64,000 bases of DNA from Pristiophorus japonicus (GCF_044704955.1 NC_091978.1:375286001-375350000), one strand, 5' to 3'. Counted from the stretch's first letter, positions 4,193 through 32,439 are shown. The notes: generated from the letters alone by a model not told the origin. Translations and numbers: made by a program.

Positions 4193-4244
4193 ATGAAAAT
4201 CATTCTCTTCATTCTTGCTGCAGTCCGGATCCTCCGCTGTTCTG
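4193..4244 (+). CDS. spp2: SPP2-like gene copy 1, exon 1 (signal peptide MKIILFILAAVRILRCS-G)
   Basis: ATG at 4193, basic-hydrophobic signal-peptide pattern, phase-1 donor G|GCAAGT (GC-AG intron) in frame with exon 2. Confidence 0.8.
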
Positions 4245-4350
4245 GCAAGTATTGAAGGGCGCTGTGGGATGATTGGAGCAAGAGCTGTTGTTCTGATCAT
4301 CAGTTGGTCTTGTCCCAATGTTACTTAAACCTCTTTGCTTTTTGGTTCAG

Positions 4351-4475
4351 GAATACCGTGTGAAGCTTCTACCCGACCAGAGGTTCCACCAGCGCTAAAT
4401 GCTACACTTACGAAGGTGAATGAGGAATCCACCCTTAATAACCTCTTTACTGTGACCGGCTGTGAATTGGTAAAT
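4351..4475 (+). CDS. spp2: SPP2-like gene copy 1, exon 2 (cystatin helix: GIPCEASTRPEVPPALNATLTKVNEESTLNNLFTVTGCELVN)
   Basis: Pyrimidine tract plus TTCAG acceptor, AAT|GTAAGT donor, 125 bp, phase 1 to 0. ALNATLTKVNEESTLNNLF resembles SPP2 ALxASVxKVNSQSLSPYLF (recalled from memory). Confidence 0.85.
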
Positions 4476-4902
4476 GTAAGTGCCATCGAATCCAACGGAT
4501 TCATTTTTGTCTCTAGTAATAAAGGTCATTAATGTGAATTTATTCTGTGGAGTTAGCAAGGATTGCACTGTGACAAATTATACTACTGTCGAGAGATAGA
4601 AAATAATAATTTGTAGCGTTTTATAAAAGTAATGGAACAATTCGCTTTCTATATCTTTCTATAAATTAATGTTTGATTGCAATTTCTGTCCAACTAAACT
4701 ACTTTATGATGTCAGTATTGATTTCTGATGCTTTTGTGTGAACTTTTAACGTGAAATTGCCTTGTAAAGATTATAATGGGATTTCCCTGTGCAAGCTCCA
4801 CCTGAGGCTGCAGTTCCGCCGCAGTGACAGGTTCTGGCCACCAGTTGCCGCTGTGCAGCAACTCTCGCTTTGCTCTCCAACTCGTTCCACATCAGAATAT
4901 TT

Positions 4903-5070
4903 CTATTGACAAACATTCACCATAAGCCCACTGACCCCACAGCTACCTGGGGATAGTCTATTGACAAACATTCACCATAAGCCCACTGACCCCCACAGCT
5001 ACCTGGGGATAGTCTATTGACAAACATTCACCATAAGCCCACTGACCCCCACAGATACCTGGACTACACC
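4903..5070 (+). repeat. ~56-bp tandem triplication at the 5' end of a Penelope fragment
   Basis: CTATTGACAAACATTCACCATAAGCCCACTGACC... starts at 4903, 4958 and 5014. Confidence 0.9.
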
Positions 5071-6312
5071 TCCTCCCATCCCGCTATCAGTAAGGACTCC
5101 ATTCCATTCTCCCAGTTGCTCTGTCTCCGTTGAATTTGTTCTGACGACGCCACCTTCCATAACAGTGCTTCCTTGTTCCTCAACCGAGGATTCCCCTCTA
5201 CCGTGATATACACGGCCCTCGACCGTGTCCATGCCATTTCCGGCACCTCTGCTCTCATCCCTTCCCCTACCTTCCAGAACCACAATACGGTTTCCCCTGA
5301 CCTCGCCTTTAACCTCATCAGTTCCAAATTCAACGGATCATCTTCCGCCATTTCCGCCACCTCCTGCGTGATCCCACCACCAATCAAATCTCCCCCTCCC
5401 CTCCCCTCTCAGCATTCCGAAGGAACCGCTCCCTCCACAACACCCTGGTCCATTCCACAGTCACCCCCAGCACCTCCTCCCCTTCCCACAGCACCTTCCC
5501 GTGCAAACACAGGAGTTGCAACACCTGCCCTTTTACCTCCTCCCTTCTCACTGTCCAGGGCCCCAAACACTCCCTCCAGGTGAAACAGCGATTTACTTGT
5601 ACTTCTTGCAATGTAGTATACTGTATTCGCTGCTCACAATGTGGTCTCCTCTACATTGGGGAGACCAAACGTAGATTGGGTGACCGCTTTACGGAACACC
5701 TCTGTTCGTGACCCTGAGCTTCCGGTCGCCTGTCGCTTTAATTCCCCGCTCCACTCCCACTCTGACCTCTCTGTCCTTGGCCTCCTAAACTGTTCCAATG
5801 AAGCTCAACGCAAGCTCGAGGAACAGCACCTCATCTTTCGTTTAGGCACTTTACAGCCTTCTGGCCTCAACATCGAGTTCAACAATTTCAAAACGTAACC
5901 ACTGCCCATATTTCTTTTTCTCTTCTAAATTTTTTTTCTCTCTTTCCCACGGCAGCTGTTGATGAGTCTGCCATTCACACCCTATCTAGAGCTACCTGTT
6001 GTTCCTTAACTTGACTCATTACCATCTCCCTTTGCCTCACACCATCATCCCTTTTGTTCTTTAATCTCTCTGGCCTCCCACCCAATCACTGACCTTCCTT
6101 TTGATCTTCCCTCCCCTCCCCCCTTTCCCTGCCCCTACACCAGCTTAAAAAGCTGTTACATCTGAAACTTCTTCCAGTTCTGACAAAGGGTCAGCGACCT
6201 GAAACATTAACTCTGTTTCTCTCTCCACAGATGCTGCCTGACCCGCTGAGATTTCCAGCATCTTCTGTTTTTTATTTCATATTTCCAGCATCTGCAGTGT
6301 TTTGCTTTTGTA
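4903..6312 (+). mobile_element. Penelope-like element 3' fragment (RT C-terminus, GIY-YIG endonuclease, pLTR)
   Basis: VYCIRCSQCGLLYIGETKRRLGDRF (GIY-YIG) at ~5615-5690; RKLEEQHLIFRLGTLQPSGLNIEF end; typical tail CTCTCCACAGATGCTGCCTGACC..TCCAGCA; degenerate hammerhead core at ~6175-6216. Confidence 0.85.
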
Positions 6313-6399
6313 TCAGAATATTTCTGCCTGATATTGTATCATTATTTATGTGTTATCTCAAACATCTTTCATTAAGTGTAGCGCTTTTTCTTTGGGTAG

Positions 6400-6522
6400 G
6401 TTACTGATGCCGGAGAACGTGTATTTGAGGCAAATTTAGTTATTGAGGTCCAGAAAGCGGAGTGCCTCAATGGTTCTGGATCTGACCCAGCACAATATGA
6501 ACTGAAACCTGTCTTGGATCTT
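6400..6522 (+). CDS. spp2: SPP2-like gene copy 1, exon 3 (VTDAGERVFEANLVIEVQKAECLNGSGSDPAQYELKPVLDL)
   Basis: TTTTTCTTTGGGTAG acceptor, CTT|GTGAGT donor, 123 bp, phase 0-0, stop-free. Aligns with SPP2 NLEFSIRETTCRKDSGEDPATC (recalled from memory). Confidence 0.85.
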
Positions 6523-6644
6523 GTGAGTATTACAAAGCTTTTCGTTTGCTTCTCTGTTGCAATGAATCCTGAGACTGGAGGCTTTCGTGTGGTGGGAAAA
6601 TGGCACAATGAGCTACCGTGGAACATTTGAAGTTTAGTCCTCTG

Positions 6645-8300
6645 TCATAGAACCATAGAAATTTACAGCCCATGGTGTCTGCACCGGCTGACCAAGAGCT
6701 ACCCAGCCTAATCCCACTTTCCAGCTCTAGGTCCATGGCCCTGTAGGTTACGGCACTTCAGGTGCACATCCAAATATCTTTTAAATATGATGAGGGTTTC
6801 TGCCTCTACCACCCTTTCAGGCAGTGAGTTCCAGACCCCCACCACACTCTGGGTGAAGAAATTTCCCCTCATATCTCCTCTAAACCTCCCCCCAATTACT
6901 TTAAATCTATGTCCCCGGTTGTTCATCCCTCTGCCAAGGGAAACTGGTCCTTCCTATCCACTCTATCCAGGCCCCTTATAATTTTATACACCTCAATCAG
7001 GTCTCCCCTCAGCCTCCTCTGTTCCAAAGAAAACAGACCCAGCATCTCCAATCTTTCCTCATAACCAAAATTCTCCAGTCCAGGCAACATTCTTGTAAAT
7101 CTCCTCTGCACCCTCTCCAGTGCAATCACATCTTTCCTGTAATGTGGTGACCAGAACTGCACGCAGTACTCCAGCTGCGGCCTAACCAGTGTTTTATACA
7201 GATCAAGCATAACCTCCCAGCTCTTGTATTCCATGCTTTGATTAATAAAGGCAAGTATTCCATATGCCTTCTTAACCAACTTATCTACCTGGCCTGCTAC
7301 CTTCAGGGATCTGTGGACCTGCACTCCCAGGTCCCTTTGTTCCTCTACACTTCTCAGTGTCCTACCATTTAATGTGTATTCCCTTGCCTTGTTAGACCTC
7401 CCCAAATGCATTACTTCACACTTATCTGGATTGAATTCCACTTGTCACTGTTCTGTCCACTTGACCAGTACATTGATATCTTCCTGCAGTCTACAGCTTT
7501 CTTCTTCGTTATCAACCACACAGCCAATTTTAGTATCATCTGCAAACTTCTTAATCATACCTCCAACATTTAAGTCCAAGTCATTGATATATACCACAAA
7601 AAGCAAGGGACCCAGTACTGAGTCCTGCGGAACCCCACTGGAAACATCCTTCCAGTCACAAAAACACCCATCAACCATTACCCTTTGCTTCCTGCCTCTG
7701 AGCCAATTTTGGATCTAACTTGTCACTTTGCCCTGGATCCCATGGGCTTTTACTTTCGTGATCAGTCTGCCGTGTGGGACCTTATCAAATGCTTTGCTAA
7801 AATCCATATACACTACATCATATGCACTGCCCTCATCAACCCTCTGGGTTACCTCCTCGAAAAATTCGATCAAGTTCGTCAGGCATGACCTTTCCTTGAC
7901 AAATCCATGCTGACTGTCCTTGATTGATCTATGTCCTTCCAAATGAAGATTTATACTGTCGCTCAGGATTTTTTCCAATAATTTTCCCACCACTGAGGTT
8001 AGGCTGACTGGCCTGTAATTACTCGGTCTATCCCTTTCTCCCTTTTTAAATAAAGGTACAACATTATCAATCCTCCAGTCCTCTGGCACTGCACCTGTAG
8101 CCAGAGAGGACTGGAAAATGATAGTCAGAGCCTCTGCTATTTCCTCTTTTGCTTCTCTTAACAGCCTCGAATATATTTCACCCAGGCTTGGGGATTTATC
8201 CACTTTCAAAGCTGCTAACTCCCTTAATACTTCCTCTCTCACTATGTTTATCTCATCTAATATTTCACTCCTCCTCCCTCATTTCATAATCTGCATTGCC
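6645..8300 (-). mobile_element. CR1 LINE, 5'-truncated
   Basis: RT ORFs with NYRPVSLTS, DFSKAFDKV, KFADDTK, LVRPQLEYC; 3' tail at ~6645-6665. Confidence 0.95.
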
Positions 8301-8557
8301 GTCAGTTGGTATTTCTCACTGACCCCCCACACAGCAGAAACCAATAAAGCACCCTCCAGTCTCTCCGCATTATAGGGGTAGTTTTGCAAGGCTGTACTGT
8401 CAAATTGAACCTCAATAAGCACAAGCTGGGATCTGAGATAGGGCAATTATACTGTAAACTATAATGCTGATTTTGGCACAGTAGACCTCCCCAATGGCTC
8501 ACCTCCATTGTCCAGTTGAGTGGGACTGCCCTTGACCGTTCCCTCTCTTAGGTAAGA

Positions 8558-8912
8558 GTCATCATCATCGTAGGCAGTCCCTCGAAATCAAGGAAGACTC
8601 TAAAAGTGAGTTCTCAGGTGGCTGTACAGTCCAATGTGGGAATTACAGTCTCTGTCACAGGTGGGACAGACAGTGGTTGAGGGAAGGGGAGGGTGGGACT
8701 GGTTTGCCGCATGCTCCTTCCGTTGCCTGTGCTTGGTTTCTGCATGCTCTCAGCGATGAGACTCGAGGTGCTCAGCGCCCTCCTGGATGCTCTTCCTCCA
8801 CTTAGGGCAGTCTTTGGCCAGGGACTCCCAGGTGTCGGTGGGGATGTTGCACTTTATCAGGGAGGCTTTGAGGGTGTCCCTGTAATGTTTCCTCTGCCCA
8901 CTGAGGCATGCT
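8558..8912 (-). mobile_element. RTE-like LINE 3' end
   Basis: (CAT)n tail followed by AGGCAGTCCCTCG and C-terminal ORF remnants on the minus strand. Confidence 0.65.
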
Positions 8913-9464
8913 TGGTAAGAGTGGGGTGGCCATTAGGATCGGTGCTGGAAATATGGTGAAAGGCAGATTGTGACGTCAATCAGTGTGCAATGTCGATTTG
9001 ATGCCAGTGCTGCTATTTTTGTCGACATCACGGAAACTAACGTCCTGTGTTAACCTTGCACAACTGAGCATGTGTTCAGCAGCAGGAAGGACCCCCCAGA
9101 CCCCGCCAGCGATATTTAAAGGGGTCATCACCAATTTTCAGGTAACCTTCTTTTTGATTTCTACTGCCTCTGTGTAACTGTTTGAAGCTTTCTCGAGTTG
9201 TTTAAAGTTGGTGAAGTGACATGTGGAGAAGGCCTTGCTTCTGACTTTAAGGGCTCTGGTCAGACTATTTGCTCCCAGTTTCACGTTGTGAACGCGACCT
9301 CTCTCTGACCTGGTCTTTACTTTAGTGATGTTGGCTGTCCCTTTCTCCCTCTCTAATAATGCCCTTTCTCCCTCCCTCTGCAGTGACTATTCCAGAACTC
9401 TGCCAACCGAATCCTTCTCCTGTAATAATTCCCAATCCCCTCACCCCTGTACCTGCTGACCTTC

Positions 9465-10740
9465 CAGGTGAGGCCTCACCAAGGCCCTGTACAACTGCAG
9501 TAAGACCTCCCTGCTCCTATACTCAAATCCCCTAGCTATGAAGGCCAACATACCATTTGCCTTCTTCACCGCCTGCTGTACCTGCATGCCAACTTTCAAT
9601 GACTGATGTACCATGACACCCAAGTCTCGTTGCACCTCCCCTTTTCCTAATCTGCCGCCATTCAGATAATATTCTGTCTTCGCGTTTTTGCCCCCAAAGT
9701 GGATAACCTCACATTTATCCACATTATGCTGCATCTGCCATGCATTTGCCCACTCACCTAACCTGTCCAAGTCACCCTGCAGCCTCCTAGCGTCCCCCTC
9801 ACAGCTCACACCGCCACCCAGTTTAGTGTCATCTGCAAACTTGGAGATATTGCACTCAATTCCTTCATCTAAATCATTGATGTATAATGTAAATAGCTGG
9901 GGTCCCAGCACTGAGCCCTGCGGCACACCACTAGTCACTGCCTGCCATTCTGAAAAGGACCCGTTTATCCCGACTCTCTGCTTCCTATCTGCCAACCAGT
10001 TCTCTATCCACGTCAGTATATTACCCCTAATACCATGTGCTTTGATTTTGCACACCTGGTATGGGACCTTGTCAAAGGCCTTTTGAAAGTCCAAATACAC
10101 CACATCCACTGGTACTCCCTTGTCCACTCTACTAGTTACATCCTCAAAAAATTCCAGAAGATTTGTCAAGCACGATTTCCCTTTCTTAAATCCATGTTGA
10201 CTTGGACCAATCCTGTCACTGCTTTCCAAATGCATTGCTATTTCATCTTTAATAATTGATTCCAACATTTTCCCCACTACTGATGTCAGGCTAACCGGTC
10301 TATAATTACCCATTTTCTCTCTCCCTCCTTTTTTAAAAAGTGGTGTTACATTAGCTACCCTCCAGTCCATAGGAACTGATCCAGAGTCAACAGACTGTTG
10401 GAAAATGATCACCAATGCATCCACTATTTCTAGGGCCACTTCCTTAAGTACTCTGGGATGCAGACTATCAGGCCCCAGGGATTTATCGGCCTTCAATCCC
10501 ATCAATTTCCCTAACACAATTTCCCGCCTAATAAGGATATCCTTCAGTTCCTCCTTCTCACTAGACCCTCGGTCCCCTAGTACTTCCGGAAGGTCATTTG
10601 TGTCTTCCTTCGTGAAGCCAGAACCAAAGTATTTGTTCAATTGGTCTGCCATTTTTTTGTTCCCCATTATAAATTCACCCGAATCCGACTGCAAGGGACC
10701 TACGTTTGTCTTCATTAATCTTTTTCTCTTCACATATCTA
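9465..10740 (-). mobile_element. CR1 LINE internal RT fragment
   Basis: ORF 9441-10733 with PQGSVLGP and KFADDTK motifs. Confidence 0.95.
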
Positions 10741-11064
10741 AATTACCTGGGGTCTGTCTCCATCTCTCTCTCTGTAATTCATGCTGTCTGACCCCCGCTC
10801 CCTGCAATAATGTCCCATTGTCTGTCTCCAGCTCTCCCTATTCAATCATTACCTGCTGTCTGTCTCTATCGTTTCCTATTTAATGATTGCCTGGTATCTG
10901 GCCCATCTCTCCCTCTCTCTCTCTCTCTCTTGCTCTACAGGTCCTCCCTCAAAAGGATCCAGGATCCTATTTCCCTCACAGGACAGGGGTTTCCATATTG
11001 AGACAGGCCTATCTTTGGACCCCCGGTATTAGGCCCCTGTTAAAATGCTGCCAGATGCAGTGGC

Positions 11065-11340
11065 GGTGTCCATGGGGTGGGGGTGTGTGTCCATGGGATG
11101 GGGGTGTGTGTCCATGGGGTGGGGGTGTGTGTCCATGGGGTGGGGGGTGTGTCCATGGGGTGGGGGTGTGTGTCCATGGGGTGGGGGGGTGTGTCCATTG
11201 GGGAGGGGTGTGTCCTTGGGTGGGGGCGGTGCGTCCATTGGGGAGGGGTGTGTCCTTGGGTGGGTGTGTCCTTGGGTGGGTGTGTCCATTGGGGTGGGGT
11301 GTGTCCTTGGGTGGGTGTGTAGATGGGGGTGCGTCCATGG
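11065..11340. repeat. G-rich ~18-21-bp minisatellite (GTGTCCATGGGGTGGGGGTGT)
   Basis: Directly visible tandem units. The overlapping ORFs are low-complexity artefacts. Confidence 0.9.
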
Positions 11341-11714
11341 GCCGGTGAGGCCACTGACCCCATTTTCAGGCCAGGGACCCCATTCTCAGGCCATTAACAG
11401 CACACCAGGACACCCAAAATCCACCCCAAGGATTTGAAAGGAACGCAGTGGGGATGTTATTATTTCCCCCTCTCTCCATCTCTCTGCAGCAGTAGCAAAT
11501 GTGATAATTCTGCTCTCCTCCTCTCCCTCTGAATGATTGGAAGTGTTGTAAGCCCCTTCCTCTTCTTCCTGGGCTGTTCTCAGGGTTTTCCAGGCCTTCA
11601 AGCAGGAGCTAAAGCAGAGAGCACCTTCCCTCACTGCTCCAGGCTCCAAATGATTAGGCCACGCCTCCAACAGCTCCACAACTCTTTTGGGAAAACATAA
11701 TAAATTAAATCAAG

Positions 11715-12020
11715 TGCCCCCTGATCTGCCCTTTTTTTGTTTTTTTTTGTTTTTTTTGGGTGATTTTTGTGGGTTTTTTTTTGGGGGGGCATTAAAATCA
11801 TAATTTTTCAAGTGCCCCCTATAAAAGGGGAGGGGGACACTTAAACCGGCATTTAAAACAAATTAAACTTTAAAACATATAAAATCAAATAAAAATTTGG
11901 TTGCCGGGGGTAATAATGCACTCCAGTCCCTCCGGTGCCCACATCTCGCGGAAGGCCACGAGCGTACCGGTGGACACCACGTGCTCCATCTCTAAGGACA
12001 CCCTGGCCCGGATGTAGGCA
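11715..12020 (-). mobile_element. Tx1/L1-like LINE 3' end
   Basis: Poly(T) tract at ~11733-11780. Minus strand reads YIRARVSLEMEHVVSTGTLVAFREMWAPEGLECII, like L1/Tx1 ORF2 C-termini. Confidence 0.6.
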
Positions 12021-13701: not shown

Positions 13702-16700
13702 GTAGCTGCTACTTGCACCAGCCAGGTCACAATCCAAACTGATGTCATCCAGAGCGTTGACGTGCAATGCATAAACTTAAATATTAATGCAACCGCCGCA
13801 CCAACAACAACTGGTGCAATAACAACAACTGACACACCAACAACAACTGATGCACCAACAACAACTGACACACCAACAACAACTGACGCAATAACAACAA
13901 CCGCCGCAATAACAACAGCTGCCGCAATAACAACAACTGATGCAATAACAACAACTGCCGCACCAACAACAACCGCCGCAATAACAACAACCGCCGCACC
14001 AACAACAACTGACGCAATAACAACAACCGAACCAACAACAACTGACGCAATAACAACAACCGCCGCACCAATAACAACCGCCGCACCAACAACAACTGAC
14101 GCAATAACAACAACCGCTGCACCAACAACAACTGATGCACCAACAACAACTGATGCACCTACAACAACTGACGCACCAACAACAACTGACGCACCAACAA
14201 CAACCGACGCACCAACAACAACCGCCGCACCAACAACAACTGACGCACCAACAACAACCGCCGCACCAACAACAACTGATGCACCAACAACAACTGGTGC
14301 ACCAACAACAACTGACGCACCAACAACAACCGCCGCACCAACAACAACTGACGCCCCAACAACAACTGACGCACCAACAACAACTGACGCACCTACAACA
14401 ACCGCCGCACCAACAACTGACGCACCTACAACAACCGCCGCACCAACAACAACTGACGCACCAACAACAACCGCCGCACCAACAACAACTGACGCACCAA
14501 CAACAACTGACGCACCAACAACAACTGACGCACCAACAACAACTGACGCACCAAGAACAACCGACGCACCTACAACAACCGCCGCACCAACAACAACTGA
14601 CGCACCAACAACAACTGACGCACCTACAACAACCGCCGCACCAACAACAACTGACGCACCAACAACAACTGACGCACCTACAACAACCGCCGCACCAACA
14701 ACAACTGATGCACCAACAACAACTGACGCACCGACAACAACCGCCGCACCAACAACAACTGACGCACCTACAACAACTGCCACACCAACAACAACTGACG
14801 CACCAACAACAACTGGCGCACCTACAACAACCGCCGCACCAACAACAACTGATGCACCTACAACAACCGCCGCACCAACAACTGACGCACCAACAACAAC
14901 CGCCGCACCAACAACAACCGCCGCAATAACAACAACCGCCGCACCAACAACAACCACCGCAATAACAACAACTGACTCACCTACAACAACCGCCGCACCA
15001 ACAACAACCGCCGCACCAACAACAACTGACGCACCTACAACAACTGATGTACCAACAACAACTGACGCACCTACAACAACCGCCGCACCAACAACAACTG
15101 ACGCACCAACAACAACCGCCGCACCAACAACAACCGCCGCACCAACAACAACCACCGCACCAACAACTGACGCAACAACAACTGACGCACCAACAACAAC
15201 CGCCGCACCAACAACTGACGCAACAACAACAACCGCCGCAATAACAACAACCGCCGCACCTACAACAACCGCCGCAATAACAACAACTGACGCACCAACA
15301 ACAACCATCGCACCAACAACAACCGCCGCACCAACAACTGACGCACCTACAACAACCGCCTCACCAACAACAACCGCCACAATAACAACAACTGACGCAC
15401 CAACAACAACCGCCGCACCTACAACAACCGTCGCACCAACAACCGCTGCACCAACAACCGCCGCAATAACAACAACCGCCGCACCAACAACAACTGACGC
15501 CCCAACAACAACTGACGCACCAACAACAACTGACGCACCAACAACAACTGACGCACCTACAACAACTGACGCACCTACAACAACTGACGCACCAACAACA
15601 ACTGACGCACCAACAACAACCGCCGCACCAACAACAACTGACGCACCAACAACAACTGACGCACCAACAACAACTGACGCACCTACAACAACCGCCGCAC
15701 CAACAACAACTGACGCACCTACAACAACTGACGCACCTACAACAACTGACGCACCAACAACAACTGACGCACCAACAACAACTGACGCACCAACAACAAC
15801 TGACGCACCTACAACAACCGCCGCACCAACAACAATCGACGCACCAACAACAACTGACGCACCTACAACAACCGCCACACCAACAACAACTGACGCACCA
15901 ACAACAACTGACGCACCTACAACAACCGCCACACCAACAACAACTGACGCACCTACAACAACCGCCGCACCAACAACAACTGACGCCCCAACAACAACTG
16001 ACGCACCAACAACAACTGACGCACCTACAACAACCGCCGCACCAACAACAATCGACGCACCAACAACAACTGACGCACCTACAACAACCGCCACACCAAC
16101 AACAACTGACGCACCAACAACAACTGACGCACCTACAACAACCGCCACACCAACAACAACTGACGCACCTACAACAACCGCCGCACCAACAACTGACGCA
16201 CCTACAACAACCGCCGCACCAACAACAACTGACACACCAACAACAACCGCCGCACCAACAACAACTGACGCACCAACAACAACCGCCGCACCAACAACAA
16301 CTGATGCACCAACAACAACCGCCGCACCAACAACAACTGGCGCACCTACAACAACCGCCGCACCAACAACAACTGATGCACCTACAACAACCACCGCACC
16401 AACAACTGACGCACCAACAACAACTGCCGCACCAACAACAACTGACACACCAACAACAACTGACGCACCAACAACAACTGACGCACCAACAACAACCGCC
16501 GCACCAACAACAACTGACGCACCTACAACAACTGATGCACCAACAACAACTGACGCACCTACAACAACCGCCGCACCAACAACAACTGACGCACCAACAA
16601 CAACCGCCGCACCAACAACTGACGCAACAACAACAACTGACGCACCTACAACAACCGCCGCACCAACAACAACCGCCGCACCAACAACAACCACCGCAAT

Positions 16701-19700
16701 AACAACAACTGACGCACCTACAACAACCGCCGCACCAACAACAACCGCCGCACCAACAACTGACGCACCTACAACAACCGCCTCACCAACAACAACCGCC
16801 GCAATAACAACAACTGACGCACCAACAACAACCGCCGCACCTACAACAACCGCCGCACCAACAACCGCCGCACCAACAACCGCCGCAATAACAACAACCG
16901 CCGCACCAACAACAACTGACGCACCAACAACAACTGACGCACCTACAACAACCGATGCACCAACAACAACCGCCGCACCAACAACCGCCGCAATAACAAC
17001 AACCGCCGCACCAACAACAACTGACGCACCAACAACAACAGACGCACCAACAACAACCGACGCACCAACAACAACCGACGCACCAACAACAACCGATGCA
17101 CCAACAACAACCGACGCACCAACAACAACCGACGCACCAACAACAACTGACGCACCAACAACAACCGCCGCACCAACAACAACCGACGCACCAACAACAA
17201 CCGCCGCACCAACAACAACCGACGCACCAACAACAACAGCCGCACCAACAACAACCGCCGCAATAACAACAACTGACGCAATAACAACAACTGACGCAAT
17301 AACAACAACCGCCGCACCAACAACAACCGACGCACCAACAACAACAGCCGCACCAACAACAACAGCCGCACCAACAACAACCGCCGCACCAACAACAACT
17401 GACGCAATAACAACAACTGACGCAATAACAACAACTGCCGCAATAACAACAACTGACGCACCAACAACAACCGCCGCAATAACAACAACTGACGCAATAA
17501 CAACAACCGCCGCAATAACAACAACTGACGCACCAACAACAACCGCCGCAATAACAACAACTGACGCACCAACAACAACCGCCGCACCAACAACAACCGC
17601 CGCACCAACAACAACCGCCGCACCAACAACAACCGCCGCACCAACAACAACCGACGCACCAACAACAACCGACGCACCAACAACAACCGCCGCACCAACA
17701 ACAACCGACGCACCAACAACAACCGCCGCACCAACAACAACCGCCGCACCAACAACAACCGCCGCACCAACAACAACTGACGCACCAACAACAACCGCCG
17801 CACCAACAACAACTGACGCAATAACAACAACTGACGCAATAACAACAACTGACGCAATAACAACAACTGACGCACCAACAACAACCGCCGCAATAACAAC
17901 AACTGACGCAATAACAACAACCGCCGCAATAACAACAACTGACGCACCAACAACAACCGCCGCAATAACAACAACTGACGCACCAACAACAACCGCCGCA
18001 CCAACAACAACCGCCGCACCAACAACAACCGCCGCACTAACAACAACCGCCGCACCAACAACAACCGACGCACCAACAACAACCGACGCACCAACAACAA
18101 CCGACGCACCAACAACAACCGCCGCACCAACAACAACCGACGCACCAACAACAACCGCCGCACCAACAACAACCGACGCAGCAACAACAACCGACGCACC
18201 AACAACAACCGACGCACCAACAACAACCGACGCACCAACAACAACCGCCGCACCAACAACAACCGCCGCACCAACAACAACCGCCGCACCAACAACAACC
18301 GCCGCACCAACAACAACCGCCGCACCAACAACAACCGACGCACCAACAACAACCGACGCACCAACAACAACCGCCGCACCAACAACAACCGCCGCACCAA
18401 CAACAACCGACGCACCAACAACAACCGACGCACCAACAACAACCGACGCACCAACAACAACCGCCGCACCAACAACAACCGACGCACCAACAACAACCGC
18501 CGCACCAACAACAACCGACGCACCAACAACAACAGCCGCACCAACAACAACCGCCGCAATAACAACAACTGACGCAATAACAACAACTGACGCAATAACA
18601 ACAACCGACGCACCAACAACAACAGCCGCACCAACAACAACAGCCGCACCAACAACAACCGCCGCACCAACAACAACTGACGCAATAACAACAACTGACG
18701 CAATAACAACAACTGCCGCAATAACAACAACTGACGCACCAACAACAACCGCCGCAATAACAACAACTGACGCAATAACAACAACCGCCGCAATAACAAC
18801 AACTGACGCACCAACAACAACCGCCGCAATAACAACAACTGACGCACCAACAACAACCGCCGCACCAACAACAACCGCCGCACCAACAACAACCGCCGCA
18901 CCAACTACAACCGACGCACCAACAACAACCGCCGCACCAACAACAACCGCCGCACCAACAACAACCGACGCACCAACAACAACCGATGCACCAACAACAA
19001 CCGACGCACCAACAACAACCGCCGCACCAACAACAACTGACCCACCAACAACCGCCGCAATAACAACAACTGACGCACCTACAACAACCGCCGCAATAAC
19101 AACAACTGACGCACCTACAACAACCGCCGCAATAACAACAACTGACGCACCTACAACAACTGCCACAATAACAACAACCGACGCACCAACAACAACCGAC
19201 GCACCAACAACAACTGACGCACCAACAACAACCGACGCACCAACAACAACCGACGCACCAACAACAACTGACGCACCTACAACAACTGACGCACCAACAA
19301 CAACTGACGCACCTACAACAACTGCCACAATAACAACAACTGACGCACCTACAACAACCGCCGCACCAACAACAACCGCCGCACCAACAACAACTGCCGC
19401 ACCAACAACAACCGACGCACCAACAACAACTGATGCACCAACAACAACCGACGCACCAACAACAACTGACGCACCTACAACAACTGACGCACCAACAACA
19501 ACTGACGCACCTACAACAACTGACGCACCAACAACAACTGACGAACCTACAACAACTGACGCACCAACAATAACTGACGCACCAACAACAACTGACGCAC
19601 CTACAACAACCGCCGCACCAACAACAACTGACGCAATAACAACAACTGGTGCACCAACAACCAATGCACCAACAATAACCGATGCACCTACAACAACTGA

Positions 19701-19872
19701 CGCACCAACAACAACTGACGCACCTACAACAACCGCCGCAATAACAACAACTGGTGCACCAACAACAACTGACACACCAACAACAACTGACGCACCAACG
19801 ACAGCAACATCAACATCATTCTCATCATCTTCATCTTCATCGGAAAGCAGTGAATCATCAGAGAGATGCAGA
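13702..19872 (+). CDS. spp2: SPP2-like gene copy 1, giant exon 4: end of cystatin domain + ~2000-aa Thr-rich mucin-like repeat + phosphoserine cluster
   Basis: CTTTCTATCTGTAG acceptor, AGA|GTAAGT donor, 6171 bp (2057 codons), phase 0-0, stop-free. Starts VAATCTSQVTIQTDVIQSVDVQC (cf. SPP2 TAVCRSTVKVSAQQVQGVHARC) and ends SSSSSSSESSESSERCR (cf. SPP2 SSSTSESYSSEE). Confidence 0.88.
13790..19800 (+). repeat. Coding minisatellite, 18-bp unit (CCAACAACAACTGACGCA / CCAACAACAACCGCCGCA), roughly 330-340 units
   Basis: Encodes PTTTDA/PTTTAA/ITTTDA hexapeptides; length variants are whole codons (e.g. PTTDA). Confidence 0.98.
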
Positions 19873-23364: not shown

Positions 23365-26300
23365 GGTATCAAATTAAAAACCAATGCGTGTAAGGTGGCC
23401 ATGGTTAGTGGGAAACTAGAAGATTGGGAAAATTTTAAACAACAGCAAAGAATGACTAAAAAAGCAATAAAGAAAGGAAAGATAGATTACGAAGGTAAAC
23501 TTGCGCAAAACATAAAAACAGATAGTAAAAGCTTTTACAGATATATAAAATGGAAAAGAGTGACTAAAGTAAATGTTGGTCCCTAAGAAGATGAGAAGGG
23601 GGATTTAATAATGGGAAATGTGGAAATGGCTGAGACCTTAAACAATTATTTTGCTTCGGTCTTCACAGTGGAAGACACAAAAACCATGCCAAAAATTGCT
23701 GGTCACAGGAATGTGGGAAGGGAGGACCTTGAGACACTCACTATCACTAGGGGAGTAGTGCTGGACAGGCTAATGGGACTCAAGGTAGACAAGTCCCCTG
23801 GTTCTGATGAAATGCATCCCAGGGTATTAAAAGAGATGGCGGAAGTTATAGCAGATGCATTCGTTATAATCTACCAAAATTCTCTGGACTCTGGGGAGGT
23901 ACCATCGGATTGGAAAGCAGCGAATGTAACGCCTCTGTTTAAGAAAGGGGGCAGACAAAAGGCAAGTAACTATAGGCCGGTTAGTTTAACATCTGTAGTG
24001 GGGAAAATGCTTGAAGCTATCATTAAGGAAGAAATAGCGGGACATCTGGATAGGAATAGTGCAATCAAGCAGACGCAGCATGGATTCATGAAGGGGAAAT
24101 CATGTTTAACTAATTTACTGGAATTCTTTGAGGATATAATGAGCATGGTGGATAGAGGTGTACCGATGGATGTGGTGTATTTAGATTTTCAAAATACATT
24201 CGATAAGGTGCCATACAAAAGGTTACTGCAGAAGATAAAGGTACGCGGAGTCAGAGGAAATGTATTACATAGAAAACATAGAAAATAGGTGCAGGAGTAG
24301 GCCATTCGGCCCTTCTAGCCTGCACCGCCATTCAATGAGTTCATGGCTGAACATGCAACTTCAGTACCCCATTCCTGCTTTCTCACCATACCCCTTGATT
24401 CCCCTAGTAGTAAGGACTTCATCTAACTCCTTTTTGAATATATTTAGTGAATTGGCCTCAACAACTTTCTGTGGTAGAGAATTCCACAGGTTCACCACTC
24501 TCTGGGTGAAGAAATTCCTCCTCATCTCGGTCCTAAATGGCTTCCCCCTTATCCTTAGACTGTGTCCCCTGGTTCTGGACTTCCCCAACATTGGGAACAT
24601 TCTTCCTGCATCTAACCTGTCTAACCCCGTCAGAATTTTAAACGTTTCTATGAGGTCCCCTCTCATTCTTCTGAACTCCAGTGAATACAAGCCCAGTTGA
24701 TCCAGTCTTTCTTGATATGTCAGTCTCGCCATCCCGGGAATCAGTCTGGTGAACCTTCGCTGCACTCCCTCAATAGCAAGAATGTCCTTCTTCAGGTTAG
24801 GAGACCAAAACTGTACACAATACTCTAGGTGTGGCCTCACCACGGCCCTGTACAATTGTAGCAACACCTCCCTGCCCCTGTACTCAAATCCCCTCGCTAT
24901 GAAGGCCAACATGCCATTTGCTTTCTTAACCGCCTGCTGTACCTGCATGCCAACCTTCAATGACTGATGTACCATGACACCCAGGTCTCGCTGCACCTCC
25001 CCTTTTCCTAATCTGTCACCATTCAGATAATAGTCTGTCTCTCTGTTTTTACCACCAAAGTGGATAACCTCACATTTATCCACATTATACTTCATCTGCC
25101 ATGCATTTGCCCACTCACCTAACCTATCCAAGTCGCTCTGCAGCCTCATAGCATCCTCCTCGCAGCTCACACTGCCACCCAACTTAGTGTCATCCGCAAA
25201 TTTGGAGATACTACATTTAATCCCCTCGTCTAAATCATTAATGTACAGTGTAAACAGCTGGGGCCCCAGCACAGAACCTTGCGGTACCCCACTAGTCACT
25301 GCCTGCCATTCTGAAAAGTCCCCATTTACTCCTACTCTTTACTTCCTGTCTGACAACCAGTTCTCAATCCATGTCAGCACACTACCCCCAATCCCATGTG
25401 CTTTAACTTTGCACATTAATCTCTTGTGTGGGACCTGTTCGAAAGCCTTCTGAAAGTCCAAATATACCACATCAACTGGTTCTCCCTTGTCCACTCTACT
25501 GGAAACATCCTCAAAAAATTCCAGAAGATTTGTCAAGCATGATTTCCCTTTCACAAATCCATGCTGACTTGGACCTATCATATTACCTCTTTCCAAATGC
25601 ACTGCTATGACATCCTTAATAATTGATTCCATCATTTTACCCACTACCGATGTCAGGCTAACCGGTCTATAATTCCCTGTTTTCTCTCTCCCTCCTTTTT
25701 TAAAAAGTGGGGTTACATTGGCTACCCTCCACTCCATAGGAACTGATCCAGAGTCAATGGAATGTTGGAAAATGACTGTCAATGCATCCACTATTTCCAA
25801 GGCCACCTCCTTAAGTACTCTGGGATGCAGTCCATCAGGCCCTGGGGATTTATCGGCCTTCAATCCCATCAATTTCCCCAACACAATTTCCTGACTAATA
25901 AGGATTTCCCTCAGTTCCTCCTCCTTACTAGACCCTCCGAACCCTTTTATATCCGGAAGGTTGTTTGTGTCCTCCTCAGTGAATACCGAACCAAAGTACT
26001 TGTTCAATTGGTCCGCCATTTCTTTGTTCCCCGTTATGACTTCCCCTGATTCTGACTGCAGGGGACCTACGTTTGTCTTTACTAACCTTTTTCTCTTTAC
26101 ATATCTAAAGAAACTTTTGCAATCCTTCTTAATGTTCCCTGCAAGCTTCTTCTCGTACTCCATTTTCCCTGCCCTAATCAAACCCTTTGTCCTCCTCTGC
26201 TGAGTTCTAAATTTCTCCCAGTCCCCGGGTTCGCTGCTATTTCTGGCCAATTTGTATGCCACTTCCTTGGCTTTAATGCTATCCCTGATTTCGCTTGATA

Positions 26301-27400
26301 GCATGGATCGAGAATTGGCTGGCTAACAGAAAGCAGAGAGTGGGATAAATGGGTCCTTTTCGGGTTGGAAATCGGTGGTTAGTGGTGTGCCACAGGGATC
26401 GGTGCTGGGACCACAACTGTTTACAATATACATAGATGACCTGGAAGAGGGGACTGAGTGTAGTGTAACAAAATTTGCAAATGACACAAAGATTAGTGGG
26501 AAAGCGGGTTGTGTAGAGGACACAGAGAGGCTGCAAAGAGATTTGGATAGGTTAAGCGAATGGGCTAAGGTTTGGCAGATGGAATACAATGTCGGAAAGT
26601 GTGAAGTCATCCACCTTGGGAAAAAAAAACAGTAAAAGGGAATATTATTTGAATGGGGAGAAATTACAACATGCTGAGGTGCAGAGGGACCTGGGGGTCC
26701 TTGTGCATGAATCCCAAAAAGTTAGTTTGCAGGTGCAGCAGGTAATCAGGAAGTCGAATGGAATGTTGGCCTTCATTGCGAGAGGGATGGAGTACAAAAG
26801 CAGGGAGGTCCTGCTGCAACTGTATAGGGTATTGGTGAGGCCGCACCTGGAGTACTGCGAACAGTTACTTAAGGAAGGATATACTGGCTTTGGAGGAGGT
26901 ACAGAGACGATTCACTCGGCTGATTCCGGAGATGAGGGGGTTACCTTATGATGATAGATTGAGTAGACTGGGTCTTTACTCGTTGGAGTTCAGAAGGATG
27001 AGGGGTGATCTTATAGAAACATTTAAAATAATGAAAGGGATAGACAAGATAGAGGCAGAGAGGTTGTTTCCACTGGTAGGGGAGTCTCGAACTAGGGGGC
27101 ACAGCCTCAAAATATGGGGGAGCCAATTTAAAACCGAGTTGAGAAGGACTTTCTTCTCCCAGAGGGTTGTGAATCTGTGGAATTCTCTGCCCAAGGAAGC
27201 AGTTGAGGCTAGCTCATTGAATGTATTCAAGTCACAGATAGTTAGATTTTTAACCAAAAAGGGAATTAAGGGTTACGGGGAGCGGGCAGGTAAGTGGAGC
27301 TGAGTCCACGGCCAGATCAGCCATGATCTTGTTGAATGGCGGAGCAGGCTCGAGGGGCTAGATGGCCTACTCCTGTTCCTAATTCTTATGTTCTTATGTT
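23365..27400 (+). mobile_element. CR1 LINE interrupted by an opposite-strand CR1 (24268-26298)
   Basis: The RT reading breaks at GNVL (24267) and resumes at AWIENWL (~26300); (TTCTTATG)n tail at ~27383-27407. Confidence 0.88.
24268..26298 (-). mobile_element. CR1 LINE, 5'-truncated, young
   Basis: Long RT ORFs 25339-26304 and 24361-25299; CATAGAAA tail at 24268. Confidence 0.95.
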
Positions 27401-27404
27401 CTTA

Positions 27405-28545
27405 TGGTCACTCTTCCCCAAGGGGCCTCGCACAACAAGATTGCTAATTAGTCCTTTCTCATTGTACATCACCCAGTCTAGGATGGCCAGCCCACTAGTT
27501 GGTTCCTCGACATATTGGTCCAGAAAACCATCCCTAATACACTCCAGGAAATGCTCCTCCATCGTATTGCTACCAGTTTGGTTAGTCCAGTCTATATGTA
27601 GATTAAAGTCACCCATGATAACTGCTGTACCTTTATTGCACGCATCCCTAATTTCTTGTTTGATGCTGTCCCCAACCTTACTACTACTGTTTGATGGTTT
27701 ATGCACAACTCCCACGAGCATTTTCTGCCCTTTTGTATTCCGCAGCTCCACCCATACAGATTCCACATCATCCAAGCTAATGTCCTTCTTTACTATTGCG
27801 TTAATTTCCTCTCTAACCAGCAATGCTACACCACCTCCTTTTCCTTTCTGTCTATCCTTCCTGAATGTTGAATACCCCTGGATGTTGAGTTCCCAGCCTT
27901 GGTCACCCTGGAGTCATGTCTCCATGATGCCAATTATATCATATTCATTAATTGCTGCCTGTGCAGTTAATTGGTCCACCTTATTAGGAATACTCCTCGC
28001 ATTGAGGCACAGAGCCTTCAGGCTTGTCTTTTTAACACACTTTGCCCCTTTAGAATTTTGCTGTAATGTGGCCCTTTTTGATTTTTGCCTTGGGTTTCTC
28101 TGCCCTCTACTTTTACTTTTGCTTCTGCCCCTATTTTACTTCCCTCTGTCTCCTTGAATAGGTTCCCATCCCCCTGCCATATTGGTTTAACCCCTCCCCA
28201 ACAGCACTAGCGAACACTCCCCCTTGGACATTGGTTCTGGTCCTGCCCAGGTGCAGACCGTCCGGTTTGTACTGGTCCCACCTCCCCCAGAACCGGTTCC
28301 AATGTCCCAGAAATTTGAATTCCTCCCTTCTGCACCATTCCTCAAGCCACATATTCATTTGAGCTATCCTGCGATTCCTGCTCTGACTAGCACGTGGCAC
28401 TGTAGCAATTCTGGGATTACTGCCTTTGAGGCCCTACTTTTAATTAGCTCCTAGCTCCCTAAATTCAGCTTGTAGGACCTCATCCCGTTTTTTACCTGTA
28501 TCATTGGTATCTATATGCACCCCGGCAACTGGCTGTTCACCCTCT
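27405..28545 (-). mobile_element. CR1 5' portion: ORF1 esterase (SGNH) and APE endonuclease remnants
   Basis: ORF 28131-28400 (WGRWDQYKPDGLHL) and ORF 27386-27823 (IMGDFN, LDWV, SDH). Confidence 0.88.
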
Positions 28546-28549
28546 CATC

Positions 28550-30578
28550 AAACCCTACATAATGTAGCAAGACTTCCTTACTCCTATACTCCAAACCCCT
28601 TGTAATAAAGGGTAACATACAATTTGCCTTCCTAATTGCTTGCTGTGCCCACATGTTAACTTTCTATGATTGGTGTACAAGGACACCCAAATCTCTTTGA
28701 ACACCAACATTTACTAGTCTCTCATCTTTTAAAAAATATTCTGCTTTTCCATTCTTCCTCCCAAAGTGGATAATTTCGCACTTCCCCACAATATATCTCT
28801 GGCCCCATGTCATCTACCAAAATTCTCTGGATTCCGGAGAGGTCCAAGCGAACTGGATAACTCGAAATGTAATGCCCCTATTTAAGAAAAGAGGGAGACA
28901 GAAAGCAGGAAATTATAAACCAGTTAGTCTAACTGGAGTCCATCATAAAGGAAGTAGTAGCAGGATATTTAGAAAATTTGTTCAAGTTCTATGAGGATGT
29001 AATGAGCAAGGTGGCTGAAGGGGAACCAGTAGATGTCATATATTTGGATTTCCAGAAAGCATTTGAGAAGGTGCCACATAAAAGGTTACTGCACAAGATA
29101 AGAGCTCACAGGGCTTGGGGTAATATATTAGCATGGATAAAGAATTGGCTAACTAACAGAAAGCAGAGAGTTAGGGTAAATGGGTCATAAGAACATAAGA
29201 AATAAGAGCAGAATTCGCCTCTTGAGCCTGCTCTGCCATTCAATACGATCATGGCTGATCTGATCATGGACTCAGCTCAACTTCCCTGCCCACTCCCCAT
29301 AACCTTTTACTCTCTTATCACTCAGAAATCTGTATCTCCGCGTTAAATATATTCAATGTCCCAGCTTCCACAACTCTCTGGGGCAGAGAATTCCACAGAT
29401 TTACAACCTTCTGAGAGAAGAAATTCCTCCTCATCTCTGTTTTAAATGGTCGACCCCTTATTCTAAAACTATACCTCCTAATTCTAGATTCCCCCATGAG
29501 TGGAAACATCCTCCCTGCATTTACCAGGTCATTTTCAGGTTGGCAAACTGTAACTAGTGTGTTGCCATAGAGATCAGTGCTGGGGTCTCAACTATTTACA
29601 ATTTATATTAATGACTTGAATGAAGGGATCGCGTGTAATGTAGCCAAATTTGCTGATGATGCAAAGATAGGTGGGAAAGCAAGTTGTGAGGTTGACGCAA
29701 ATAATCTACAAAGGGATAGAGACAGATTATGTGAGTGGGCAAAAATTTAGCAGATAGAGTATAATGTGGAAAAATGTGAGATTATCCACTTTGGTAGGAA
29801 AAATAAAAAAGCTAGTTATTATTTAAATGGGGAAAGATTACAAAATGCGGTGGTACAGAGGAATCTGGGGGTCCTTGTACATGAAACACAAAAAGTTAGT
29901 ATGCAGGTACAGCAAGTGATCAAGAAGGCAAATGGAATGTTGGCCTTTATTGCAAGGGGGATAGAGTATAAAAGTAGGGAAGTCCTGCTACAAATGTACA
30001 GGGCGTTGGCGAGGTCACACCTGGAGTACTGCGTACAGTTTTGGTCTCCTTATATAAGGAAGGATATACTTGCACTGGAGGCAGTTCAGAGAAGGTTCAC
30101 GAGGTTGATTCCTGAGGCGAAGGGGTTGTCATATGAAGAAAGGTTGAGCAGGATGGACCTATATTCATTGGAGTTTAGAAGACTTCGAGGTGATCCTACT
30201 GAAACATATAAGCTTCTGAGGGGGCTCGGCAAGGTAGATGCAAAGAGGCTGTTTCCCCCCCGTGGGGGAATCTAGAACTAGGGGCATAGTTTCAGAATAA
30301 GGGGGCGCCCATTTAAAACGTAAATGAGGAATTTCTTCTCTGAGGGTCATGAATCTTTGGAATTCTCTGCCCTAGAGAGCTGTGGAGGCTGGGTCGTTGA
30401 ATATATTTAAGGTGGAGATAGACAGATTTTTGAATGATAAGGGAGTGAAGGGTTATGGGGAGCGGGCAGGGAAGTGAAGTTGAGGCCAAGGTCAGATCAG
30501 CCATGGTCTTATTGAATGGCGGAGCAGGCTCGAGGGGTCAAATGGCAGACTCCTGCTCCTATTTCTTATGTTCTTATA
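28550..30578. mobile_element. Further nested CR1 fragments (both strands)
   Basis: RT ORFs 28978-29190 (+), 29318-29509 (-), 29766-30275 (+); TTCTTATG tail at ~30562-30577. Confidence 0.88.
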
Positions 30579-31587
30579 CAAAAGTGAAGTTCATGCAAAT
30601 TTCATGAATTTATACCCATTCTGAACGGGTTATAAATTTAAGCCTAAAGTTTTACACACAACAGGACCAAACTTATTTTGTTTTTTCACAGTTTTTAAAT
30701 TCTGCTCACTGAGACATACAATGTGTCTTCTATATCTAAAAATGTATCTTCATGGACCCGAGAATGATTTGCATTAAGAACTGTTTTAAGCATTAAAAAC
30801 GTCATGATTACATTTGCTGAAACATGCTGTGCCTAATGTGTATAAAAGATAGTTTGATGACTTCAAACTTTAATTTTCATTGTTAAAGATGACATAAAGA
30901 AAGAAGAGCGCGTAAGTTCAGCACGTCCCTCGGGCAATGATTTCCAATTGTTGGACGCTGGTTTTTAAGATTCTGGCGTATGCTAATGGGATTCTCAAAG
31001 AATTTCAACATAACTCAGCAACAGGAAGAACGGCATTAATTTTGGCTTAACTTGCTGGTTCGCCATTTCAGGAAATTCCAGACCAGATCATTTGGAAATC
31101 ACACCTTGAGGTAACAGTGGGCGGAACTATCTCCATTCCCTGGTCGCTGGTTGGGCGCCTTGCCAGGATGTTATTGGCGAACTTGCCTACGAAAATTGCT
31201 GCCGTAAATGCCAATGGGCGGATTATTGCAGGCGGGGCACCAATGATTTTGCAATATGTTGCTCACTGCGTACGAAGCTCAGTGTTGGGAGGCCTCGGAA
31301 ACCTCCGCCCTATTTATGTAACTTGTTGGAGAGACTCAGTACCATAGTAATCAGATCATTAATGACTGGTTATATCCAACACTTCTTTCAGCCAATGGTC
31401 CAGCCAACTTACTCGGAGTGAGGATCCATAATTAGCCAATGAGATAAAAGCAATGAATGTGCTTTGCTGGCGCCGGTTGAGCGAGCAGGTTGCCCACGAG
31501 AGCTTGCAGCTCTTCGGATCTCGCTACGGGACACTGTGTGTCCACCTCCATCAGCAGACTTGATTCAACATCTCATCTACAGAAGGG

Positions 31588-31985
31588 CCCCACCGACAGT
31601 GCAGCACTCCCCCAGTCCCACCGACAGTGCAGCACTCCCCCAGCCCCACCGACAGTGCAGCACTCCCCCAGCCCCACCGACAGTGCAGCACTCCCCCAGC
31701 CCCACTGACAGTGCAGCACTCCCCCACCGACAGTGCAGCACTCCCCCAACCCCACTGACAGTGCAGCACTCCTCCACTGACAGTGCAGCACTCCCCCAAC
31801 CCCACTGACAGTGCAGCACTCCTCCACTGACAGTGCAGCACTCCCCCAACCCCACTGACAGTGCAGCACTCCTCCACTGACAGTGCAGCACTCCCCCAGC
31901 GCCACCGACAGTGCAGCACTCCCCCACCGACAGTGCAGCACTCCCCCAGCCCCACCGACAGTGCAACACTCCCCCAGTCCCGCAC
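31588..31985 (+). repeat. 22/28-bp minisatellite (CCCCACCGACAGTGCAGCACTCCCCCAG), probably SINE-derived
   Basis: Visible tandem units. The core GACAGTGCAGCACTCCC resembles a vertebrate SINE central-domain motif (recalled). Confidence 0.85.
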
Positions 31986-32286
31986 TGAACCTTGGGCTGG
32001 ATAAAGTTCTCCACCCCATGCCGTGGGGATTGATTCGAGGATCGGTGCACTCCGAGGAAGAAGCTCCGGTCCTGAGCCACGCTGACACACCTCTGTCCGA
32101 TGCAGAGTTAAACCGAGGGAGGGCACTGTACTGAGCATTGACAGGTTTAACTGCAAATGTGACTTGATTGGTTCGTCAGAGGGCCATTCTTCAGATATTT
32201 AATATAATGTTCTATTCTAGAAAAATGTAAATGTAAAGAAAATTCTGTTTTCTGGACTGAGATATAAATAATGCCATTTGACTTAG

Positions 32287-32439
32287 AAGCGTCGCAGAGG
32301 ACGGAGAAACCGGCGTTGCAGGAGGAAAAAAGGTTCAAAAGCAAAAAGCCGGGGTCGGGGGAGACGTGGTCGGAAGGGAAGAAGGAAATCTCATGGTTGG
32401 AGGCACGGATCGAGCTCTGAAACTGGTGCAGACAGATAG
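32287..32439 (+). CDS. spp2: Candidate last coding exon of the SPP2-like gene: cationic peptide KRRRGRRNRRCRRKKGSKAKSRGRGRRGRKGRRKSHGWRHGSSSETGADR*
   Basis: TTTGACTTAG acceptor (weak). Phase 0 matches the exon 4 donor. TAG at 32437-32439 and strong donor A|GTAAGT at 32486/7. Other frames are also open, so the frame is inferred. Confidence 0.6.
   Translation, partial: KRRRGRRNRRCRRKKGSKAKSRGRGRRGRKGRRKSHGWRHGSSSETGADR

Follow-up and report, generated by a model that had tools for sequence, protein, structure and literature searches.

Whether a threonine-rich reading frame of about 6 kb in the genome of Pristiophorus japonicus belongs to a gene, and to which, is the question raised by a window of 64 kb on C2 (G000:C2:375286001-375350000). 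The window is the whole stretch of DNA that was analysed, and positions refer to it unless C2 or C3 is named. The locus encodes an intact five-exon gene of the SPP2 family, whose fourth exon carries this frame (Table 1). As proposed in the first-pass annotation, the five exons join in frame (intron phases 1,0,0,0), giving 6624 nt and a protein of 2207 amino acids (aa) with a single terminal stop codon. The acceptors are AG throughout and the donors GT, except for the GC donor of intron 1, which is common to both sister copies described below; the equivalent site in the paralogues on C3 is GT. The chain, with a calculated mass of 211 kDa, consists of a hydrophobic N-terminus, a domain of ~108 residues, the repeat, a stretch rich in serine and S-x-E motifs, and a basic tail. 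Exon 1, with a hydropathy of 2.5-3.5 across its first scanning windows, is also present in the paralogues (with a GT donor) and in the public protein P0002. The tail (residues 2154-2207) has a net charge of ~+24 and contains Cys2156, Cys2168 and five R-x-K/R-R sites.

A member of the spp2.Like group with a cystatin-like domain

A profile of the paralogous exons was compared with 1.84 billion representative sequences and retrieved 17 proteins, all labelled as shark or ray. Sixteen of these matched the Pfam family Spp-24 at E<=0.01, 12 of them above the cut-off, and most have the domain, a Thr/Pro spacer, the Ser/S-x-E cluster and a basic tail. The best match, P0002 ('secreted phosphoprotein 24-like', P. 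japonicus, 150 aa), is identical letter for letter to exons 1, 2, 3 and 5 of the window gene, so that an independent annotation uses junctions 1-2 and 2-3 as well as the exon-5 acceptor; junctions 3-4 and 4-5 are absent from this model. The earlier expectation that annotation would call the gene only 'mucin-like' suits one skate relative, which carries the name 'mucin-2-like', and fails for the public model of the locus itself, which is named as a phosphoprotein and lacks the mucin exon.

In the phylogenetic tree the window copy fell into a clade of 12 rows (97/93) together with P0018 (XP_038664201.1, Spp2L3), and six spp2.2/2.3-type genes of the same genome formed a clade of their own (100/100, branch 1.17) apart from spp2.Like. 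The tree was calculated without an spp2.1 row; a search with a short spp2.1 motif gave only 12 off-locus matches. Four spp2 clades have been described in cartilaginous fishes, of which spp2.Like is divergent and comprises lineage-specific duplicates, some on other chromosomes (PMC13188829). The catshark genes spp2.L1-L3 share with the window gene a signal peptide, a divergent cystatin-like domain, a Thr/Pro repeat, S-x-E motifs and an Arg-rich end, and in spp2.L2 a PTST-type repeat separates the domain from the Ser-rich region (PMC13188829). The architecture of the window gene is not new: it matches this elasmobranch spp2.Like type, and the earlier notion that an SPP2 protein with a Thr/Pro repeat was undescribed has to be given up in view of catshark spp2.L2. 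Recognition of the gene as an SPP2-family paralogue was correct, and its assignment to SPP2/spp2.Like appears almost certain. It is filed under spp2.Like, apart from canonical SPP2, mucins and cathelicidins. What is new compared with the described spp2.Like genes is the size of the spacer (2017 aa), the loss of Cys92, and the exon-specific mosaic against the sisters in a three-copy array, part of which escapes homogenisation.

By eye, the catshark spp2.L1 probe (cDNA, PMC13188829) crosses the same junctions 1-2, 2-3 and 3-4. This probe apparently contains an additional base just within exon 4, a possible reason for the domain described as 'missing' from spp2.L1, and the one labelled spp2.L2 looks by eye like P0018, named Spp2L3 in Table S14 of the same report (PMC13188829). 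Searches for a long form among public proteins, which are weak evidence, gave 0 of 11 candidates with exon 3 of copy 2 against proteins of 73-2000 aa and 0 of 39 with the exon-4 head against proteins of 1131-3600 aa (word-indexed search); the family alignment against proteins of 308-2000 aa gave one match, of 319 aa, among 8000 scored. No paper was found on an spp2 gene with such a spacer or on the copies of P. japonicus; the alignment files of PMC13188829 may hold longer spp2.Like sequences of other species, and its text has 0 occurrences of 'sawshark' or 'Pristiophorus'.

To assess the domain, 11 relatives from other species were combined into a profile of 109 positions. On it, the spliced window domain scored 119.5 bits over positions 2-108 (shuffled sequences <=7.8), with 43.3 bits for exon 2 and 30.2 bits for exon 3, and the form without exon 4 scored 85 bits over positions 2-82. 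The first 26 residues of exon 4 alone gave 26.0 bits on positions 85-108 (best of 200 shuffles, 9.8). These spans show that exon 4 completes the domain. Fold evidence came from the relative P0004 and the skip form P0002, which stand in for the full spliced domain. The model of P0004 consists of a helix and four strands, with a predicted local distance difference test (pLDDT) score of 75-93 across residues 21-120 and disorder downstream, and resembles cystatin E/M (Foldseek E 7.5e-5) and other cystatins (Z 11.4, root-mean-square deviation 4.1-4.2, 108-111 aligned residues). P0002, which lacks the exon-4 head, showed only the first half of this fold: residues 18-100 formed a helix and two strands, with cystatins within the five best matches (Z 4.5-5.2). 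The nearest atlas structures were SPP24 clusters with a template modelling (TM) score of 0.71, below the threshold of the tool. PDB sequence searches gave 0 matches, and a search for PF07448 across the genome gave 0, with the controls also blank. As judged from these profiles and models the domain is cystatin-like, as the first-pass annotation had it.

Of the four canonical domain cysteines the window copy has only 81, 105 and 123, whereas both sisters keep all four. Cys81 is retained (6463-6465), and its partner Cys92 is replaced by Tyr (6496-6498), so that the mature chain has seven cysteines (eight in the whole protein) compared with eight in the sisters. The loss of Cys92 is predicted to leave Cys81 unpaired. 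Cys21 and Cys55, both encoded by exon 2, are a pair common to the 12-member subclade. Mammalian SPP2/Spp24 is similar in its cystatin-like domain ending in a 19-residue Cys loop, its Ser-rich region and its proteolysed Arg-rich C-terminus, but it has ~200 aa, is liver-derived and lacks a mucin spacer (PMC3753320), and the window copy lacks one canonical cysteine and has the additional Cys21-Cys55 pair. Bovine Spp24 binds BMP-2 via this loop, and its Arg-rich end is trimmed (PMC3753320). The putative equivalent of the bovine BMP-binding peptide in the window gene is the loop Cys105-Cys123, inside the part that escapes homogenisation; PMC13188829 leaves spp2.Like out of the inferred shared BMP2 binding.

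In cathelicidins, too, a cystatin-fold pro-domain precedes a cationic C-terminal peptide with an exon to itself, but Spp-24 outscored Cathelicidins in all four relatives matching both families, exon 3 and P0002 matched neither, and the window gene has five exons, a mucin spacer and a Ser/S-x-E cluster before its predicted cationic tail. Gel-forming mucins (MUC2/5/6) have a long Pro/Thr/Ser repeat domain as well; the window protein differs in lacking VWD and cystine-knot domains, and a gel-forming mucin was rejected because the chain has 8 Cys and only ~180 non-repeat residues.

Table 1. Features of the window gene and its sister copy, with positions in the window.
Feature	Position	Strand	Basis
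TATA-like element 5' of exon 1	4114..4120	+	pattern match only
Exon 1, coding part, 52 nt; predicted signal peptide, residues 1-17; followed by GC donor	4193..4244	+	spliced model
Exon 2, 125 nt; residues 18-59; helix and first strand of cystatin-like domain	4351..4475	+	spliced model
Exon 3, 123 nt; residues 60-100	6400..6522	+	spliced model
Exon 4, whole, 6171 nt	13702..19872	+	spliced model
Exon 4, head; residues 101-128; last domain hairpin with Cys105 and Cys123	13702..13785	+	relatives' profile, sister comparison
Exon 4, repeat; 337 copies of 18-nt unit, ~2000 residues	13790..19803	+	repeat scan
Ser stretch with three S-x-E motifs; residues 2141-2154; predicted FAM20C sites	19822..19863	+	same cluster in sisters and relatives
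Exon 5, 153 nt; basic tail through stop codon	32287..32439	+	spliced model, in P0002
Candidate polyadenylation signal AATAAA	34243..34248	+	pattern match only
Sister copy 2, exon 1 and start of exon 2; continues past the window	63797..64000	+	genome search

ATTAAA alternatives to the candidate polyadenylation signal occur at 33971 and 34378 (pattern match only).

The enlarged exon 4

The claim that exon 4 had grown enormously was borne out. The spacer, measured from the last cysteine of the domain to the Ser run, has 2017 aa in the window copy, 99 and 421 aa in the sisters and 17-105 aa in 12 further relatives (nine public, three C3 paralogues); no value was obtained for P0010 and three rows without a Ser run. 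The window copy thus has a spacer five to twenty times as long as those of its relatives. The 18-nt repeat has 86% matches between copies, and 302 of 330 units encode six residues, chiefly APTTTD or APTTTA, with AITTTD also present. The resulting ~2020 aa are of a Thr/Pro/Ala/Asp type, with 50% Thr, 185 Asp and a single Lys or Arg, and the whole protein contains 1021 Thr. Within the array 58 different unit strings occur, and exact internal repeats reach at most 309 nt. The C3 paralogue C3_B (G000:C3:170958124-170976220, - strand) shows a further spacer expansion, of independent origin, in which ~180 residues by eye are made up of Glu-Pro-Thr-rich units.

The long frame by itself is weak evidence, because the reverse strand is likewise open (2071 aa) and just 0.05% of single-base changes in the exon-4 frame would create a stop. 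The other two forward frames contain 56 and 140 stops. All repeat units comprise whole numbers of codons, with the caveat that the ACA run of the unit slips in threes. Exon 4 stands out from chance by the conservation of its two ends in the family: the head matches the profile, and the Ser/S-x-E cluster and the donor at the other end are as in the paralogues. Exon 4 is probably spliced into a long transcript, since the domain obtains its last hairpin from the exon-4 head. An RNA run (share 0.05) over 4000-13785 covered repeats and showed no exon-junction joint among the matches listed, which is neutral evidence. No long-form transcript was found in the RNA and protein searches.

Paralogous copies and mosaic identity

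About 0.3 Mb separates the window from the end of C2, a subtelomeric and repeat-rich setting in a 5.9-Gb genome. A genome search with exons 1-2 found two near-identical copies close by and three matches on C3, and exon 3 was found in eight places. Copy 2 encodes 295 aa (exon 4 of 435 nt) and copy 3, which lies farther on and is inverted, 618 aa (exon 4 of 1404 nt); both are intact and have the same junctions as the window gene, copy 1. At 170.76-171.31 Mb, C3 contains four spp2.Like-type genes whose exons 1-4 are open, together with a broken copy (G000:C3:170762754-170783828, + strand), in which exon 1 has a frameshift and a stop and exon 3 has deletions. This region is flanked on one side by a COPS8-family match (169.59 Mb) and on the other by VPS8 (172.59 Mb), and C3:173.06-174.36 Mb holds 19 spp2.3-type exon-3 matches. 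These ~19 spp2.2/2.3-type C3 copies equal the largest clusters reported in PMC13188829. Synteny with the SPP2 locus was not confirmed, as the canonical cops8/vps8/nme9 locus is on C3 and the window array on C2. C3 carries the known spp2 locus, and the C2 array is a DNA-level transposition with introns kept.

Identity between copy 1 and its sisters is 98-100% over the promoter, exons 1, 2 and 5 and late intron 3, but only 70-72% in exon 3 and the exon-4 head. In comparison with copy 2, 11 of 1401 bases differ from the promoter through intron 2, 5 of 600 at the end of intron 3 (none in the last 312 nt) and 3 of 453 in exon 5 and its 3' flank, whereas exon 3 has 35 differences in 123 bases and the exon-4 head 25 in 84, starting at its second base (Fisher p 4e-20). 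Exon 5 is 99% identical in both sisters, and the tail 98% identical across the three copies, which otherwise bear private differences and different insertions. The divergence of exon 3 and the exon-4 head from the sister is as deep as that from the paralogue C3_C. It is likely, judging from these alignments, that an old duplicate pair has been homogenised by gene conversion, with the second half of the domain left out. A comparable pattern is that of ATP1A1 in Leptodactylus (10.1101/2020.08.04.234435).

Possible function, alternatives and genomic surroundings

In the catshark, expression of spp2.Like genes has been reported from denticles and dental lamina (PMC13188829). For spp2.L3 the values were 342 transcripts per million (TPM) in denticles, 77 in dental lamina, 27 in Meckel's cartilage and 7.6 in ampullae, with <1.2 TPM in the remaining 27 samples and <0.4 TPM in gills, oesophagus, stomach, intestine, uterus and ovary, in a table without shell gland (PMC13188829). 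A preprint reports an unspecified spp24 together with mmp20 in late-stage shark teeth. The spp2.L3 profile and the preprint favour odontode epithelium over the general mucus or egg case suggested at first pass; an egg-case protein was rejected on the uterus and ovary values, with the shell gland outside the table (PMC13188829).

The gene may be an expanded-spacer spp2.Like member encoding a secreted bottle-brush phosphoglycoprotein that would bind calcium-phosphate mineral on the surfaces of teeth and denticles, a reading whose chances we consider evenly balanced. The protein would be secreted by odontode-associated epithelium, its Thr repeat O-glycosylated and its S-x-E motifs phosphorylated, and once glycosylated the chain would be far heavier than 211 kDa. 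The phosphoserine cluster and the Arg/Lys tail could attach it to apatite or to anionic matrix, from which it might be freed by proprotein-convertase cleavage of the tail. At 0.25 nm per residue the extended spacer would measure roughly 0.5 micrometre, and as an acidic, hydrated layer it might space or cap growing crystals and keep the cystatin-like head off the surface. Unpaired Cys81 could join two chains, and selection may keep exon 3 and the exon-4 head of the window copy distinct while gene conversion homogenises the three copies. Lubricin/PRG4, with a central O-glycosylated Thr/Pro brush between surface-binding ends, and statherin, in which a phosphoserine patch beside a basic patch anchors to apatite, offer a working analogy; no homology is implied, and the window gene has no somatomedin-B or hemopexin domains. 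An extended version, a megadalton, apatite-anchored, disulfide-dimerising mucin brush for odontodes and possibly saw-teeth, with the three-gene array supplying short, medium and giant lengths under homogenised promoters and tails and selection against conversion keeping the ligand-facing half-domain of the giant form distinct, is doubtful. If it held, cartilaginous fishes would have arrived independently at a coat resembling lubricin or a pellicle. To our knowledge, cartilaginous fishes lack most enamel-matrix phosphoproteins of bony vertebrates. The spacer series of 99, 421 and 2017 aa is a natural one, and because its members share promoter region and tail the role of the spacer is directly testable. 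The public model conceals the main feature of the gene, and the identity break at the exon edge suggests where in the domain a functional divergence probably took place.

Several findings count against a brush-like phosphoglycoprotein of odontodes, or against steps leading to it. The expression data come from another species, the catshark, in which spp2.Like was undetected by in situ hybridisation and its function called difficult to apprehend (PMC13188829). The approximately unbiased test did not reject a union of the C2 copies with the spp2.3 type (p 0.21, 107 columns). Only three of the four canonical cysteines are present, and P0002 gave only a poor model (mean pLDDT 55, best Z 5.2). Agreement with the family profiles, expected at first pass, is divided: single window exons, including exon 3, had no Pfam match and P0002 does not match Spp-24 either, whereas sister exon 3 reaches 26.4 bits (cut-off 26), six of seven paralogous exons match the family, and so do the relatives. 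Variants within the repeat showed no significant synonymous excess (10/16 vs 17/38, p 0.37), and purifying selection on the repeat codons was rejected as demonstrated on this ground. The intron just behind exons 3 and 4 is also unconverted (15-17% different) and becomes non-alignable within ~200 nt, running into unrelated insertions, so that nearby insertions may partly explain the mosaic. The dN/dS ratio against the sister is 0.87-1.26, varying with transition weight, and fits relaxed constraint too; it shows neither purifying nor positive selection. Synonymous divergence is raised as much as non-synonymous divergence over the flanking introns; positive selection is therefore not shown and was rejected as demonstrated.

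The public model omits exon 4, and the basking-shark locus is annotated with an isoform containing it (P0014) and one skipping it (P0012). Both annotations speak for the alternative that exon 4 is mostly skipped, leaving a 150-aa product of truncated domain and basic tail, with a repeat that grew because it is rarely translated. The frame survives skipping (exon 4 is phase 0-0), and all four mature cysteines of the short form could pair (21-55, 81-tail). Skipping, however, removes profile positions 83-108, the hairpin Cys105-Cys123 and the Ser/S-x-E cluster, and exon 4 retains splice sites, frame and both conserved ends despite the 25 changes in its head; moreover, the conversion tract ends at its second base. 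Long low-complexity exons are often dropped by gene predictors, and predominant skipping is in our view unlikely. That assembly or polishing produced the 6-kb array or the three-copy mosaic artefactually, as might be suspected from the chromosome end, the near-identical copies and a 250-N run at 44711-44960, is very improbable, given the many distinct units, the short longest exact repeat, the private differences and different insertions of each copy, the inversion of copy 3, and an identity break that coincides with an exon edge.

A defence protein of skin or mouth would explain the cystatin-fold head, the acidic spacer and the highly charged tail with its five cleavage sites as a cathelicidin-like precursor on a mucin stalk, from which proteases free a cationic, disulfide-looped antimicrobial tail while the head varies under microbial pressure. 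Some relatives also match Pfam Cathelicidins (P0006, 29.4 bits, cut-off 21), coding exons differ more from C3_C (26-29%) than nearby introns do (16-27%), and the catshark 'denticles' sample probably contains skin. This explanation is rather unlikely, as catshark spp2.L1 and L3 show almost no expression in gills, oesophagus, stomach or intestine (PMC13188829), an Arg-rich, proteolytically trimmed end is general to Spp24 (PMC3753320), 'phosphoprotein' has 0 occurrences in the main text of a shark skin-mucus proteomics study of other species (PMC10707392), and the tail is nearly invariant across the three copies. Less probable still is a redundant duplicate under relaxed selection on its way to a pseudogene, in which the loss of Cys92 and the growth of the repeat are decay and transposon insertions blocking conversion made the mosaic. 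The dN/dS ratio near 1, 16 residue changes on the branch of the window copy vs 10 on that of the sisters, the missing Pfam match of exon 3, the non-alignable intron and the subtelomeric, repeat-rich surroundings would all fit. Yet the gene has no stop, frameshift or broken splice site at 15-30% divergence, a state in which divergent exons kept frame and splice sites in 0.7-8% of neutral simulations, depending on the assumed indel rates, and real decay is exemplified by the broken copy on C3. A dN/dS near 1 is, moreover, a trait of the subclade, because the sister compared with C3_C gives 0.67-0.95, and the sharp break at the exon-4 acceptor is unexpected from distance alone.

In the C2 neighbourhood, 111 non-repeat frames of at least 70 aa from 20 stretches yielded retroelement domains and one Arf-family exon (L072:1714-2118; G000:C2, ~375.208 Mb), which lies ~80 kb upstream and is the sole host-gene neighbour found. 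A young long terminal repeat (LTR) element at 34977-41177 (+), with terminal repeats of ~675 nt and 3 mismatches between them, is missing from the flank of the sister copy. To the eye, the single long frame of the element (38444-40363, 639 aa) resembles an envelope sequence, with a basic cleavage motif and hydrophobic stretches; it had no Pfam or PDB match, and no pol frame of at least 100 aa was recognised in the element. The 250-N run lies in a CT-rich repeat outside the gene. Further LTR-retroelement fragments occur at 52012-53445 (+) and 59858-60928 (-), with pol (RNase H, integrase zinc finger) and gag-protease sequences, and reverse-transcriptase frames of the long interspersed nuclear element (LINE) type at 1807-2667, 9441-10742, 23587-26322 and 41687-42436, several of them within introns 3 and 4.

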